Positions 49,287-62,810 of a stretch of 64,000 bases of DNA are shown piece by piece (the first letter of the stretch is position 1; each line of letters opens with the position of its first letter). The DNA is from an uncultured candidatus Porisulfidus sp. (lineage in GTDB: Bacteria; Pseudomonadota; Gammaproteobacteria; Poriferisulfidales; Poriferisulfidaceae). A program made the position numbers and the translations under genes. Where the stretch lies: positions 1,478,440-1,542,439 of the forward strand of contig OZ243950.1 in assembly GCA_965214545.1 (NCBI GenBank), given 5' to 3'. The notes under the pieces are model-generated. The model did not search any database, was not told the origin of the DNA, and was given only the letters and a program-made list of their open reading frames with translations.

Positions 49287-49344
49287 GGGAAGGCAAGAGC
49301 CGCAGGCCCTCGCAGCCAGCAGGGGCAGGCGCGAGGGCACCAAA

Positions 49345-49375
49345 ACTTTACATAATTAAAAACGCTGTACATTTT
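49345..49375 (+). promoter_or_regulatory. Motif A (TTTACAT box pair), copy 1
   Basis: ACTTTACATAATTAAAAACGCTGTACATTTT. Also at 50209-50239 and 62701-62730. Confidence 0.45.
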
Positions 49376-49423
49376 GCAGAGTCGCCCATAGATCTGTGTT
49401 ATTTATCAATGAGATACAAGGCG

Positions 49424-49455
49424 AAAAAATGGTCTAAAAAAACCGACCATTTTTC
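49424..49455 (+). promoter_or_regulatory. Motif B palindrome AAATGGTC-N10-GACCATTT, copy 1
   Basis: AAAAAATGGTCTAAAAAAACCGACCATTTTT, ~60 bp upstream of the DUF1640-1 ATG. Identical copies at 50287-50317, 61573-61600 and 62779-62810. Confidence 0.5.
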
Positions 49456-49514
49456 CTTGCAATGAAGGAGGAGTTCGGTTAAAAAAGCACTTTCCCTTTC
49501 ATTTCCAAGGTGCT

Positions 49515-50048
49515 ATGATTATGACCGAAGCTCACCGAACCCCGGAGGAAGCCACTCCCGAACTCCCGACCGCATCTGCCCGGCCTTCCAAGCGCCCGGG
49601 CTCTCGGGAATCCCGGCAACGTCCCATGTTCGACACCCTCCAAGTGGCCCACGACCTGAGGAAAGGCGAGTTTTCTGCCCCACAGGCCGATGCGCTGGTC
49701 TCCGCTTTGAATGTCATTTCCCGGAACATGGTGACGAAAGCCGAGTTGAAGGCCGAATTAAAGACTGCGCTGAGCAACCACCCGACCCAGGCCGACCTGA
49801 AGACCGAACTGGGTGAACTGAGGGCCGAGTTTAGGGCCGGACTGGCTGATCTGAGGAGCGAGTTTAGGGCCGGACTGGCTGATCTGAGGACCGAGCAGAA
49901 AACTGAACTGCAGGCCACGCTGGAAAACTACCCAACGAAGGCCGACTGGGCTGCCCTCGAAACACGTCTGACGATGCGGATGTACATGATGACGAGTCTG
50001 ATGGCCAGTCTTACCGTGGGGGTAATCACTTTGGTCATTAAGCTGTAG
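49515..50048 (+). CDS. DUF1640 (CCDC90-like) coiled-coil protein with C-terminal TM anchor, paralog 1
   Basis: [35 protein letters not shown] coiled coil, C-terminal [22 protein letters not shown]. Contains an internal 33-nt tandem repeat. Confidence 0.55.
   Translation: MIMTEAHRTPEEATPELPTASARPSKRPGSRESRQRPMFDTLQVAHDLRKGEFSAPQADALVSALNVISRNMVTKAELKAELKTALSNHPTQADLKTELGELRAEFRAGLADLRSEFRAGLADLRTEQKTELQATLENYPTKADWAALETRLTMRMYMMTSLMASLTVGVITLVIKL
49826..49891 (+). repeat. Perfect 33-nt in-frame tandem repeat (x2) inside DUF1640 paralog 1
   Basis: gagtttagggccggactggctgatctgagg repeated twice, encoding (A/S)EFRAGLADLR x2. Absent from paralog 2. Confidence 0.6.
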
Positions 50049-50208
50049 GGATCGGGAGAAGGCCACGCGGATTCTTGCGTGTGATTCCAGCACTCCCGCC
50101 GTTTTCTTCGCCGATGCCTGCCGAACTGAGCCAGTCGTTATCCTGGGACACACGAAGTGGCTGAAGGGGGCAACCGCAGTTGGGCGGGGCAGGTGCGAGG
50201 ACCCCAAA

Positions 50209-50239
50209 ACTTTACATAATTAAAAACGCTTTACATTTT
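50209..50239 (+). promoter_or_regulatory. Motif A, copy 2
   Basis: ACTTTACATAATTAAAAACGCTTTACATTTT. Confidence 0.45.
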
Positions 50240-50286
50240 GTAGGGTTATATATAGATATACGTTATTTATCAATGAGATATAAGGC

Positions 50287-50317
50287 AAAAAAATGGTCTA
50301 AAAAAACCGACCATTTT
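50287..50317 (+). promoter_or_regulatory. Motif B palindrome, copy 2
   Basis: AAAAAAATGGTCTAAAAAAACCGACCATTTTT, upstream of DUF1640 paralog 2. Confidence 0.5.
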
Positions 50318-50378
50318 TCCTTGCAATGAAGGAGGAGTTCGGTTACAAAAGCACTTTCCCTTTCATTTCCAAGGTGCT

Positions 50379-60735: not shown

Positions 60736-61468
60736 GCCGCGGTTCCTCTACCCGGACTGGCCCGCCCCCGGCAACGTGCGGGCGGCCGCAAGCACCCGCG
60801 CGGGCGGCGTCAGCCGAGGGGCCTATGCCGGGTTGAACCTGGCCGCGCACGTGGGGGATCAACCGGGCGATGTTGCCGAGAACCGAAAAATCCTGGCGCA
60901 GGCCCTGCGGCTGCCCGGCGAGCCCTATTGGCTGGACCAGCGGCACGGTGCCGGGGTTCGGGAGGCGCGGATCCGGCCCGGGCCGGTCTCGGCGGATGCC
61001 AGCCACACGGCCTCTGCGGGGCCGGTGTGCGTCGTGCAGACCGCGGATTGCCTGCCGGTCCTGCTGTGTTCCCGCAACGGGGATTGGGTGGCGGCGGCGC
61101 ATGCCGGCTGGAGGGGTATTGCGGCGAATGTCCTGGGTGCCGCGATCCGGGCCTACCCCGGATTGCCGGCGGACCTGATGGCTTGGCTGGGCCCGGCCAT
61201 CAGCGCGGCCTGCTACGAAGTGGACACGCCGGTGCGGGACGCTTTGGGCGAAGAACTCGCCGCGGTCGCATGGCGTCCATCCGGCCGAGCCGGGCACGGC
61301 TCGCTGGACCTGGTTGCGGCGGCCGCATGGCAGCTGGGGCAAGCCGGGGTGGCGGACTGCTTCGGCGGGCGCTGGTGTACGTTTCAGGACGAACGGCGTT
61401 TTTATTCGCACCGCCGGGACCGGACCACCGGCCGCATGGCCACCCTGATCTGGTTGGAAGGGCACTGA
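60730..61468 (+). CDS. pgeF: Peptidoglycan editing factor PgeF / YfiH (purine nucleoside phosphorylase LACC1 family)
   Basis: GTG start overlaps the rluD TGA. C..H..H motifs (VQTADCLPVLL, AAAHAGWRG), C-terminal RMATLIWL. Confidence 0.75.
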
Positions 61469-61572
61469 TTCCCCGCCCGCCACCGGACCGGGGGGAAAAC
61501 CCAGGGAAAAGTGGCCGATTCGCCCCGGTCTGGCTGGGAAATGCATTTATAACCAATTGATTTAAAAGGATT

Positions 61573-61600
61573 AAAAATGGTCTAAAAAAACCGACCATTT
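61573..61600 (+). promoter_or_regulatory. Motif B palindrome, copy 3
   Basis: AAAAATGGTCTAAAAAAACCGACCATTTAT, ~65 bp upstream of the ATG at 61666. Confidence 0.5.
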
Positions 61601-61665
61601 ATTGTTTACTTTGCCGGGTTTTTGGGGTAGAACGAATACTTCGCCATGCTTCTGAGGAGAACCCC

Positions 61666-62313
61666 ATGGAAACTCGAAAAACATCCGGCGCCCGCTTATG
61701 GGTATGGCTGCTGGGCGGGCTGTTCCTGCTGTTGAGCGCAGCCTCAATCATCTACGGCGTGGCGCGAAGCTCCAATGGGGCCTTCACGTTTTCCGCCCCG
61801 GACGATCCGCCGCCGCCGCAAGGGTGGGTCCCCGCGGTGAATGCCGCCCCTGAAATCGATGTGGCGCAGTTGTCGGAATCCCTGGCGCAGGCCTTGGACC
61901 GCCATCTTGAACAGCGGCTGCTCGGCCTGCTTGAGGAACTGAAGGACGATCGGCTCATGCAGGCGCGGTTGATCGAGGAAAGGCAGGACGGATTGGCCGG
62001 CCAGATCGAAGCGCAGTCCTCGAAGCTGGCAGACCTCGGCCACCGGCTGGATTCGGTTGGGCAGGGGCTTGGCCGCTTGCTGGACAACCTCGAAGCTGAA
62101 ACGCGTCAGACCCCCAGGGGGCCGGCGTTTGTGTTTCGCGGCATTGAGATCTGGCACGGCGAGGTCTATGCGCTGCTTGAGCATGAGGGGAGAATCGTGC
62201 CGGTGCGAGAGGGAGAATCGCGGCTGGGCTGGAGAATTCATGCGATTGATCGCGACGGGCGGGCGCTGCATGTGGGCGACGGCATGCAGGAACACGTCCT
62301 GGAGGTGCAGTGA
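61666..62313 (+). CDS. Hypothetical membrane-anchored coiled-coil protein (215 aa)
   Basis: N-terminal TM LWVWLLGGLFLLLSAASIIYGV, then coiled coil (LEELKDDRLMQARLIEERQDGLAGQIEAQSSKLADLG). Confidence 0.5.
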   Translation: METRKTSGARLWVWLLGGLFLLLSAASIIYGVARSSNGAFTFSAPDDPPPPQGWVPAVNAAPEIDVAQLSESLAQALDRHLEQRLLGLLEELKDDRLMQARLIEERQDGLAGQIEAQSSKLADLGHRLDSVGQGLGRLLDNLEAETRQTPRGPAFVFRGIEIWHGEVYALLEHEGRIVPVREGESRLGWRIHAIDRDGRALHVGDGMQEHVLEVQ

Positions 62314-62314
62314 G

Positions 62315-62701
62315 ATGAACGGCAGATGGAATTGGAGGACCGCGTGGCTGGTGGTGCCCGCGGTTTTGGCCGGAGCCATTGCCTCCCGGGTCTATGACGT
62401 CCATGCGGCACGGGAGGAATCCAGCCGATGGCAGGAGACCGCGATGCACGCGCCCCGCTGGCTGGAATTGAGCGAGGAGGAATGGCGGCAGTATCAGACG
62501 TGGCGCAGCCTGGTCGGCAAGCCGCTGGCTGAAATGACCCCGTACGAAGTTCTGGGTATTTACACCGACGACCCGGAGCAACGGCGACGGTTTGCGCGGG
62601 AAAACGCCCGCTTCATGCTCGACTTCTATCGGCGGACGATGGAGTTCGAAACACTTTATCGTGAGGAATTAACACGGTTTTCAGACAAAAAGGCCCGATA
62701 A
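62315..62701 (+). CDS. Hypothetical membrane-anchored protein (128 aa)
   Basis: ATG 2 nt after the upstream stop. N-terminal TM WLVVPAVLAGAIAS. Confidence 0.45.
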   Translation: MNGRWNWRTAWLVVPAVLAGAIASRVYDVHAAREESSRWQETAMHAPRWLELSEEEWRQYQTWRSLVGKPLAEMTPYEVLGIYTDDPEQRRRFARENARFMLDFYRRTMEFETLYREELTRFSDKKAR

Positions 62702-62730
62702 CTTTACATAATTAAAAAAGCTTTACATTT
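62701..62730 (+). promoter_or_regulatory. Motif A, copy 3
   Basis: ACTTTACATAATTAAAAAAGCTTTACATTT. Confidence 0.45.
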
Positions 62731-62778
62731 CCCAATTCTTTACAAGAATATATCTTGATTATCAATATCTTAAATCGC

Positions 62779-62810
62779 AAAAAAATGGTCTAAAAAAACC
62801 GACCATTTTT
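62779..62810 (+). promoter_or_regulatory. Motif B palindrome, copy 4
   Basis: AAAAAAATGGTCTAAAAAAACCGACCATTTTT, ~110 bp upstream of the lipoprotein ATG. Confidence 0.5.

Follow-up and report, generated by a model that had tools for sequence, protein, structure and literature searches.

A conserved dyad module upstream of the leading operons of a chromosomal type IV secretion cluster and of DUF1640 genes in sponge-symbiont Gammaproteobacteria: a candidate promoter/operator cassette

INTRODUCTION

On IncP-1 plasmids, KorA and KorB act at exact palindromic operators that recur at several promoters, some of them immediately upstream of the -35 element; these operators are uninterrupted palindromes of 12 to 13 bp, about 7 to 12 per plasmid, and their repressors are known. 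In IncA/C plasmids and in the SXT/R391 integrative and conjugative elements (ICEs), one activator site, the AcaCD or SetCD box, precedes transfer operons and also genes in hitching genomic islands. The present study concerns a repeated AT-rich module in a 64-kb stretch of DNA (contig OZ243950.1, positions 1,478,440 to 1,542,439; here called the window) from an uncultured candidatus Porisulfidus sp. Its core is an interrupted inverted repeat, the dyad, and it stands before two DUF1640 paralogs, a gene for a 215-amino-acid (aa) protein, and the gene for a RAQPRD-family lipoprotein. A reading made from the sequence alone had drawn attention to these repeats, and the observation was confirmed; they most likely represent a promoter/operator cassette, conserved and specific to this lineage, that belongs to a type IV secretion system (T4SS) cluster of mating-pair formation type G (MPF-G) kept in the chromosome; one copy of the cassette would have been captured by DUF1640.

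Several promoters at the heads of ICEclc operons have a motif in common, and chromatin immunoprecipitation of BisC recovered a weak inverted repeat whose halves are separated by as much as 12 bp (PMC9286271 S3 Fig; PMC12409273). The BisDC regulon of ICEclc serves the same T4SS family as that found here, MPF-G (RAQPRD, TIGR03746, TIGR03749, TIGR03750, TIGR03752, TIGR03756). However, the ICEclc motif is GC-rich (GCCG-GTTTCC...TTGCA) and showed no resemblance to AAATGGTC-N10-GACCATTT in eight published instances; eight to eleven promoters bear it, compared with two here, where the module is also present before a chromosomal gene outside the cluster. In PAPI-1, an MPF-G island, the pil2/T4SS promoter is controlled by TprA, NdpA2, and MvaT from an upstream site of ∼33 bp in AT-rich DNA, but the TprA site lies about 250 to 290 bp upstream of the gene and no such dyad is reported there (PMC8565334). 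SetCD-regulated promoters are mentioned in PMC5812530. The AcaCD/SetCD system is the best analogy for the capture by DUF1640, although it differs in having MPF-F rather than MPF-G machinery, another motif, and FlhDC-type regulators, and nothing here points to an FlhDC-like factor. The Kor operators differ from the module, which has an 8-N10-8 architecture and few copies. Overall, the proposed wiring would fit that of other conjugative systems, namely, BisC/BisD of ICEclc, TprA of PAPI-1, and the repeated operators of IncP, IncA/C, and SXT.

RESULTS

Exact copies of the dyad in the window

Repeats, their conservation, their distribution over genes and genomes, their phasing, and the order of events could be shown from the sequences. 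The 24-mer AATGGTCTAAAAAAACCGACCATT had four exact matches in the window, all on the + strand (at 49428, 50292, 61576, and 62784), compared with an expectation of 0.16 in dinucleotide-preserving shuffles; four matches were reached in 0 of 100 shuffles. The sequence-only reading had quoted a 28-nt string for these four sites, and all four copies were identical over it. It had also described a second conserved box upstream of three of them, and TTTACATAATTAAAAA was exact at 49347, 50211, and 62703 and missing at copy 3. The 8-mer CTTTACAT, which is repeated in this box (box 1), had 7 matches in the window versus 0.18 expected. The gap between the dyad and the start codon was 63 to 70 nt for copies 1 to 3 and 116 nt for copy 4, and the GC content of the modules was 25 to 37%, compared with 65% for the window.

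The downstream genes were those named in the sequence-only reading. Pfam detected Plasmid_RAQPRD downstream of copy 4, and both CCDC90-like/DUF1640 matches were below the gathering score; the 215-aa protein had no family match in Pfam or NCBIfam and no homology to the DUF1640 protein. Copies 1 and 2 were contained in a recent tandem duplication (49311-51040), whose 864-bp unit starts with the module, runs through the DUF1640 gene, and extends a few bases past the stop codon of that gene. The two units exhibited 90 to 100% identity over promoter and gene, except for a 99-nt coiled-coil indel; this block (49790-49888), built of 33-nt coiled-coil repeats, was present only in paralog 1. The four repeats, although all exact, therefore amount to three independent copies in the window, before DUF1640, the 215-aa gene, and RAQPRD. 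The exact identity of all four is partly due to recent duplication and within-genome homogenization and not to constraint on each base. No Rfam match at the gathering score was found anywhere in the window, nor any at an E value of ≤1 around the modules, and the window had no tRNA genes.

Anatomy and conservation of the module

Relatives were found by searches with the DUF1640 protein, the dyad pattern, and RAQPRD, and their loci are designated by L numbers. The anatomy of the module was determined from 19 stacked copies; a twentieth, before a 224-aa gene in L030, was not in the stack. An A run upstream of the dyad core (8-N10-8) and a T run downstream of it were both conserved. The arms ATGGTC/GACCAT were intact in 15 of 19 copies, including those of the most distant genomes, whose RAQPRD proteins were only 53 to 58% identical. 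Variants were GACTAT in two copies (one C-to-T change), ACGGTT/AACCAT in L010, and a degenerate left arm, ATGTGC, in the RAQPRD copy of L028. The spacer had a length of 10 nt in every copy (19/19). Its sequence was T(A/G)AAAAA(A/T)CC in the window clade, ACGAAATTGT in L031, AGGTTGTCCT and AGGTTGGTCT in L028, GGTTTAAACC in L030, and AAAAAAAGTT in L010, with 0 to 2 differences among paralogous copies of one genome and differences at 5 to 9 of the 10 positions between genomes. Outside the window clade, the outer spacer positions were complementary with different pair types, indicating that the dyad symmetry extends inward. The sharing of spacers within a genome by copies older than the lineages may possibly result from short-tract gene conversion, from template switching at quasi-palindromes, from a trans factor that reads the spacer, or from strand-exchange homology.

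Two hexamers were detected at fixed distances downstream of the dyad. Positions 7 to 12 were TTGCAA, TTGATT, TTGCTT, TTGCCT, TTGACG, TTGTGC, or TTTACT, with no match in one copy (L006, 215-type); most copies had a -35-like TTGnnn at this position, and three of the four 215-type copies deviated. Positions 30 to 35 were occupied in 18 of 19 copies by a hexamer with A at its second and fourth positions, which was shifted by 1 nt in one copy. This hexamer was TA(C/A)AA(C/A) before DUF1640, TAGAAC or TACAAC before the 215-aa gene, and GAGACT, GACACT, or CAAACT before RAQPRD. The 17 nt between the hexamers were unconserved and contained a 1-nt indel in one copy only. Fixed hexamers separated by an unconserved 17 nt are the classic footprint of -35 and -10 elements.

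Matches to the integration host factor (IHF) consensus, WATCAANNNNTTR, were observed 20 to 35 nt upstream; 13 of 19 copies, counted by inspection, had a full match at the aligned position, and these are predicted sites. The match was on the opposite strand in the 215-type copies of the window, L006, and L031. Box 1, with two or three CTTTACAT repeats spaced 17 to 19 nt apart, was limited to the window clade and L031, and there to the DUF1640 and RAQPRD classes.

The third codon positions of spoT provided a neutral level, with identities of 0.78, 0.69, 0.70, and 0.63 between the window and L001, L009, L012, and L010, respectively. Identity over the whole module, for the same four comparisons, was 0.66 to 0.77 and hence near this level. 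The 24-mer had 23 to 24 identical positions out of 24 between the window and L001, L009, and L012. As the 24-mer was conserved beyond the neutral level and the arms were kept at 53 to 58% RAQPRD identity, these results indicated constraint on specific bases and not on pairing alone. They bore out the earlier suggestion of a selected cis element, as opposed to a chance repeat, with orthologous positions in at least 10 genomes and arms kept where spoT third-codon identity was 63 to 78%.

A candidate operator beside a putative sigma70-type promoter

The reading that we favor, with moderate confidence, is that the module is a lineage-specific promoter cassette whose dyad would be the operator of a putative regulator, next to a sigma70-type promoter. 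That the module acts as a promoter and binds a protein is inferred, as are the direction of regulation and the coregulation of the genes. The dyad ends 6 nt before the -35-like TTGnnn and 29 nt before the -10-like hexamer; with a predicted transcription start ∼7 nt past the latter, it would span about -63 to -42 and could be bound by a sequence-specific dimeric DNA-binding regulator. The IHF-like site would provide an additional upstream input, and the two or three CTTTACAT direct repeats further upstream, present in two of the three promoter classes, are probably a second input. In this arrangement the cassette would drive the two leading units of the chromosomal ICEclc-type (MPF-G) cluster, the 215-aa/128-aa gene pair and the RAQPRD operon. 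As the -10 hexamers are weak, an activator is likelier than a repressor.

An operator is favored because the arm sequence and spacer length are invariant, the orientation is fixed, and the phasing to the -35- and -10-like hexamers is fixed over three promoter classes. An inverted repeat with conserved half-sites (15/19 arms) and fixed spacing (19/19 spacers), as in dimeric operators, was found, and both of the two copies in each T4SS cluster head transcription units. Furthermore, a structural hairpin needs no particular stem sequence, and the conserved arm bases therefore speak for a DNA element that is read by sequence.

Other known sites were rejected. A sigma54 promoter was discounted as GG-N10-GC was absent by eye on both strands around the dyad, and the consensus sequence or spacing of NifA-type upstream activating sequences and of CRP, FNR, Fis, LysR (T-N11-A), ParB/parS, dif, and hix sites did not fit. 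A small RNA gene running from a promoter in box 1 to a terminator at the dyad was also rejected: the intervening sequence was unconserved between classes, and 215-type copies had no box 1.

Several observations weigh against an operator beside a promoter. No promoter was called at the module sites by a strict sigma70 consensus scan, despite the TTGnnn and -10-like hexamers spaced by 17 nt over the stack, and the -10 hexamers of two classes (TACAAC and TAGAAC) lack the usual final T. No regulator gene adjoined the modules in the window or in the relatives' loci, and small open reading frames at the cluster edge in L028 and L030 had no DNA-binding domain. The half-site centers are 18 bp apart, which is unusual for a helix-turn-helix (HTH) dimer. 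The L030 copy before the 224-aa gene (8655-8700) lacks one whole dyad half: its 26-bp palindrome would be perfect but for the loss of precisely 13 nt, the half AAACCGACCATTT, between TTT microrepeats. A spacer that is genome specific yet shared within the genome is not expected from a simple operator model. In addition, the L028, L030, and L031 variants have partly palindromic spacers and form strong terminator-like hairpins with U-rich tails, the inner spacer pairs covary, and two arm changes from G-C to G-T are compatible with pairing in RNA from the + strand.

The last of these points would fit an alternative in which the dyad functions in RNA and was duplicated with the adjacent promoter. 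It would then be a hairpin that serves as an intrinsic terminator (possibly in both directions) or insulator, or else as a leader attenuator or stability element. We consider this unlikely. Such a hairpin would block read-through from the upstream gene (spoT, DUF1640 paralog 1, yfiH, or the 128-aa gene) before a separately regulated promoter, and a co-directional gene was present upstream of every copy. As in intrinsic terminators, the dyad with its A/T flanks folds as a hairpin with a U-rich tail, an A run preceding the stem and a T-rich run following it in all copies. The fold was canonical looking in the three relatives just named, with stems of 11 to 14 bp, 4-nt loops, and energies of -13.7 to -18.8 kcal/mol (z = -6 to -7); the inner spacer covariation involved A-T, G-C, and C-G pairs, and the two arm changes, which were independent, give G-U pairs. 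However, the stem sequence was kept over deep divergence, when pairing would suffice. The window-clade version has a 10-nt loop, compared with the 3 to 8 nt of intrinsic terminators, and a folding energy of only -9.8 kcal/mol and was not called by a terminator scan. The hairpin was lost in the RAQPRD copy of L028 (-4.8 kcal/mol, z = -0.2), in which the promoter-proximal arm, the T run, and the -35 hexamer were kept, and was halved in the L030 copy before the 224-aa gene, where the neighboring promoter-like sequence likewise persists. The spacing to the downstream hexamers is fixed, whereas anything between 80 and 240 nt separates the dyad from the stop codon of the gene before it. A terminator would have no obvious purpose between two adjacent T4SS operons with the same upstream module, and a separate GC-rich inverted repeat (61483-61533; 15-nt arms, 87% complementary, 21-nt gap) already lies directly past the yfiH stop, upstream of dyad copy 3, and may be the terminator of yfiH itself. 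Operator and terminator roles are not mutually exclusive.

Two further observations concern possible regulators and promoters. In the halved L030 copy, a consensus TATAAT now stands immediately past the surviving half. Elsewhere in the window, an AT-rich island (27000-29150; GC content, 0.44 to 0.52) contains an Xre-type HTH gene (27057-27389, + strand), a gene for an HTH_17 protein (27514-28077, - strand), a Panacea/SocA antitoxin-like gene (28260-28697, + strand), and a 149-aa gene without a family (28694-29143, + strand). Its divergent promoter region (about 28120-28160) carries three tandem TTTACA(T/A) boxes with a 9-nt period, one of which is the 8-mer CTTTACAT. The boxes are located in the HTH_17 gene's own upstream region; with one 8-mer in common, the HTH_17 protein might bind box 1. 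A tblastn search with this protein detected no copy in any of the relatives' loci retrieved, which cover little DNA.

Distribution in related genomes and order of events

The DUF1640 search recovered syntenic spoT-DUF1640-ridA-recG loci from several metagenome-assembled genomes (MAGs), and the window spoT protein was 93% identical to that of a Ca. Porisulfidus chromosome. A scan with AATGGTCTNNNAAAACCGACCATT of one genome per species (185,579 species genomes) detected 7 loci. One of these, in a Treponema MAG, was a probable chance match; the remaining six were in sponge-associated Chromatiales, Gammaproteobacteria, or Candidatus Porisulfidus MAGs. A metagenome scan with the box-1 pattern ACTTTACATAA-N10-CTTTACATT detected only unrelated low-GC tandem repeats.

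The module preceded DUF1640 in L001/L008, L002, L004, L007, L009, L010, and L012; RAQPRD in L005, L006, L031, L028, and L030; and a gene of ∼215 aa in L006, L031, and L028 and, in truncated form, in L030. In L006, the 215-aa gene was immediately past yfiH, with a dyad variant in front of it whose spacer was TAAAAAATCC. The T4SS cluster was again past rluD-yfiH in L031 (RAQPRD 71% identical), past a thioredoxin gene in L028/L029 (53% identical), and past ATP sulfurylase in L030 (58% identical). Gene order in L031, L028, and L030 was [∼215 aa][∼130 aa][RAQPRD ... TraU, TraC, TraG_N], with one dyad before the first gene and a second before RAQPRD; the next 10 kb of T4SS genes contained no further dyad. 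Overall, module positions were orthologous in at least 10 related genomes and were tied to the starts of the same three kinds of genes with a constant orientation, in agreement with the gene linkage that the sequence-only reading had asked to be checked genome-wide. It had also asked whether copies cluster further inside the element; none was present in those 10 kb of the relatives' clusters. There were about 1 to 4 copies per genome and a single strict match in one complete 1.8-Mb chromosome.

This distribution leaves next to no room for the module being the remnant of a miniature inverted-repeat transposable element or of an insertion sequence (IS)-like element scattered in intergenic DNA, an alternative that the sequence-only reading had itself raised. 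The module is AT-rich, palindromic, repeated, and intergenic, and IS elements (ISL3 and IS605-type TnpB) occur nearby in a relative. Nevertheless, no terminal inverted repeats or target-site duplications bounded the copies, their positions were orthologous and not variable from genome to genome, copies were few, only 7 strict-pattern loci were detected in the species-level scan, and orientation was always toward the same three gene types. As a separate observation, spoT is separated from the module in L001 (7568-9604; Ca. Porisulfidus chromosome OZ241993.1) by an insertion with two genes, for an ISL3 transposase and a DUF2335 protein; in this chromosome box 1 is degenerate and the dyad and predicted core promoter are intact.

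The order of events was deduced from the classes present in each lineage. In the genome of L031, DUF1640 is present between spoT and ridA with no module before it (L032), and in that of L028 spoT is followed directly by ridA (L033). An ATGGTC-N16-GACC sequence upstream of DUF1640 in L032 was considered as a degenerate dyad; it had no significant fold and was treated as absent. The T4SS cluster had two copies in every lineage examined, in keeping with the proposed link to a conjugation-type cluster, and the DUF1640 copy occurred in only one subclade, which includes the window; the module therefore originally belonged to the T4SS cluster, and the DUF1640 copy arose later. The DUF1640- and RAQPRD-type modules have in common box 1, the TTATCAAT element, the dyad, and TTTTCCTTGC, and the RAQPRD copy of L031 already has box 1. 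The simplest history would be a single capture of a RAQPRD-type cassette by DUF1640, between spoT and ridA in one subclade of sponge-symbiont Gammaproteobacteria, followed by tandem duplication of the unit in the window genome. Capture would have placed DUF1640 in the same regulon. Of the "spreading promoter cassette" proposed earlier, copying is thus retained, in one capture and one tandem duplication, but not spreading, given the few copies per genome.

The T4SS cluster and rivals linked to DNA transfer

Pfam and NCBIfam gave the gene order rho, rpoZ, spoT, two CCDC90-like/DUF1640 genes, ridA, recG, glucose/sorbosone dehydrogenase, nadE, bamD, and yfiH, followed by the 215-aa gene, the 128-aa gene, the RAQPRD lipoprotein gene, and a DUF2976-like gene. 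The last of these genes belong to a T4SS cluster of the ICEclc/PFGI-1 type (MPF-G), of which the window contains only the first ∼1 kb. In the window and relatives, the cluster matched RAQPRD, DUF3487, DUF2895, DUF3438, TraU, TraC_F_IV, and TraG_N in Pfam and TIGR01690, TIGR03746, TIGR03749, TIGR03750, TIGR03752, and TIGR03756 in NCBIfam; in relatives, the RAQPRD operon continues with DUF3487, DUF2895, DUF3438, TraU, TraC, and TraG_N. The 215-aa/128-aa pair was kept together in all T4SS clusters seen, and the 128-aa protein had a weak likeness to TIGR03759, an ICE protein family.

In all three chromosomal contexts (past rluD-yfiH, the thioredoxin gene, and ATP sulfurylase), the cluster starts at the dyad of the 215-aa gene. 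No tRNA gene or integrase was seen at that edge (window, 61469-61665; L006, 7445-7640; L031, 8520-8740; L028, 8101-8797; L030, 8632-8730). RAQPRD homologues were found on many 1- to 2-Mb contigs of these sponge symbionts, and a tblastn search of a plasmid collection with RAQPRD gave no match. The sequence-only reading had spoken of an ICE. The genes are indeed of the MPF-G conjugation type, but those visible in the first 10 kb in relatives were mating-pair-formation genes only. As the cluster is present in many symbionts at fixed places, it may be a retained T4SS cluster and not an active mobile element, and it does not look recently acquired.

The association with conjugation genes raises a second alternative, which we judge very unlikely, namely, that the module is an MPF-G origin of transfer (oriT) or relaxosome assembly site overlapping a promoter, with two copies as in ICEclc and a chromosomal mimic before DUF1640. 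Such a site would be an AT-rich stretch of ∼150 bp that contains direct repeats and an IHF site and whose inverted repeat adjoins a nick site. The oriT of IncA/C (MOB_H) is ∼150 bp long with a GC content of 37%, contains multiple inverted repeats and 14-bp direct repeats, and overlaps the mobI promoter; the layout of the module fits this description, a resemblance by description only (PMC5587640). ICEclc, with the same T4SS family, has two oriTs (PMC5812530, PMC6561031). The low GC content of the module, its CTTTACAT direct repeats, its IHF-consensus matches, and the conserved TTTTCCTTGC just 3' of the inverted repeat are all consistent with such a site. However, the IncA/C oriT is a single locus next to mobI, and the 10 kb of the cluster that could be read in three genomes showed no relaxase, coupling protein, or equivalent of mobI. 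The arms were equally conserved before a gene at a chromosomal housekeeping locus, that of DUF1640, in nine genomes, where an oriT would have no obvious selective value. Box 1 was missing in 215-type copies and in the most distant genomes, and with three or four copies in direct orientation over 13.5 kb, transfer would become fragmented.

A third alternative is that the dyad is a site-specific recombination core, whose arms would bind a recombinase and whose spacer would be the site of strand exchange, with the CTTTACAT repeats and IHF sites as arm-type and bending sites and the genes between copies as excisable cassettes. This would account for conserved arms around a spacer that is genome specific and (nearly) identical within a genome, as strand-exchange homology would impose. 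All copies are in direct orientation, the module is attP-like in combining direct repeats and an IHF-like site with an inverted-repeat core, and the 215-type copy lies at the cluster edge in three chromosomal contexts. We nevertheless regard it as highly improbable. Tyrosine recombinase cores typically have a spacer of 6 to 8 nt (see also the discussion in PMC5587640), and the 10-nt spacer is longer. Copies in the same genome do not always have the same spacer, with differences of 1 to 2 nt in L006, L028, and L004/L005, and no recombinase gene was found near the copies in the window or the relatives' loci. No structural variation was observed, all six clusters being [dyad]-215-128-[dyad]-RAQPRD. 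The DUF1640 duplication involved ordinary long homology (∼860 bp) with junctions away from the dyad, and in the L030 half-site 13 nt are cleanly deleted between TTT microrepeats, without a hybrid junction.

Features of the window

The features are listed in Table 1. The second hexamer before DUF1640 was TACAAC in relatives, compared with TAAAAA at window paralog 1. Two leader sequences were also noted. In the RAQPRD operon leader (about 62872-62908), a GC-rich hairpin, AGGGTCGYC ... GRCGACCC, was conserved with some compensatory changes over six genomes (window, L005, L006, L031, L028, and L030); it could be a second, RNA-level control point. The DUF1640 leader, GCAC...TTTCATTTC...AGGTGCTAT (49487-49520 and 50351-50384), was nearly invariant over eight genomes, more so than the protein, when the same region was compared in L001, L002, L004, L007, L009, and L012; its GCAC is able to pair with GUGC around the Shine-Dalgarno sequence.

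Table 1. Modules, predicted promoter elements, and associated genes, in window coordinates
Feature	Position	Strand	Remarks
Box 1, copy 1: AACTTTACAT-N11-CTGTACATTT	49344..49374	+	Two CTTTACAT-type direct repeats, 19 nt apart; second with one mismatch
IHF-like site TATCAATGAGATA	49404..49416	+	One mismatch to WATCAANNNNTTR; full consensus match at the aligned position in most relatives
Dyad copy 1: AAAAAATGGTC-TAAAAAAACC-GACCATTTTT	49424..49454	+	
Predicted core promoter, DUF1640 paralog 1: TTGCAA-17 nt-TAAAAA	49457..49485	+	Phylogenetic footprint; not called by strict consensus scan
DUF1640/CCDC90-like tail-anchored coiled-coil gene, paralog 1	49521..50048	+	Start is the ATG aligning with the GTG start of relatives
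Box 1, copy 2	50208..50238	+	Two exact CTTTACAT repeats
Dyad copy 2	50288..50318	+	Within the 864-bp tandem duplication together with copy 1
Predicted core promoter, DUF1640 paralog 2: TTGCAA-17 nt-TACAAA	50321..50349	+	Phylogenetic footprint
DUF1640/CCDC90-like gene, paralog 2	50385..50813	+	
IHF-consensus match AATCAATTGGTTA upstream of dyad copy 3	61550..61562	-	Orientation inverted relative to other classes; likewise in L006 and L031
Dyad copy 3, without box 1	61573..61600	+	Left edge of T4SS cluster, directly past yfiH/pgeF
Predicted core promoter, 215-aa gene: TTTACT-17 nt-TAGAAC	61605..61633	+	Both hexamers the same in L031, intervening spacer different
Two-gene unit: 215-aa N-terminally anchored coiled-coil protein (61666-62313) and 128-aa protein (62315-62701)	61666..62701	+	
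Box 1, copy 4	62700..62745	+	Two exact CTTTACAT repeats and a third repeat, CTTTACAA
IHF-consensus match TATCAATATCTTA	62760..62772	+	
Dyad copy 4	62779..62810	+	
Predicted core promoter, RAQPRD operon: TTGATT-17 nt-GAGACT	62813..62841	+	GAGACT, GACACT, or CAAACT at the same second-hexamer position in 5 other genomes
RAQPRD-family lipoprotein gene	62923..63336	+	First gene of long MPF-G T4SS operon; Pfam

DISCUSSION

The spacer raises a broader possibility, which we rate as quite unlikely: that the dyad is not a plain operator but a site of nucleic acid processing. It could be a recombination core, a relaxase- or oriT-like site, or a sequence recognized, spacer included, by an RNA or protein acting in trans. 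A requirement that the spacer match between the copies of one genome would explain invariant arms, a length of 10 nt, and a spacer that is genome specific and shared. If this were true, symbiont genomes that are streamlined in other respects would carry exchangeable modules, namely, the leading T4SS genes and the DUF1640 unit. Whichever the mechanism, the spacer evolves in concert, which poses a modest yet genuine puzzle as to how short dispersed repeats stay identical.

With the favored reading of an operator beside a sigma70-type promoter, the module bears on the biology of its hosts, uncultured sponge symbionts with small genomes (about 1.4 to 2 Mb) that have kept an ICEclc-type T4SS cluster at fixed chromosomal places. 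A precisely defined element before the two leading operons provides a handle for finding the regulator and would be useful in reading metatranscriptomes for when a symbiont switches its secretion machine on. The capture beside spoT would be a clean natural case of regulon growth through the copying of a promoter cassette, and it predicts that the tail-anchored coiled-coil DUF1640 protein acts with the secretion system or at the same time as it.

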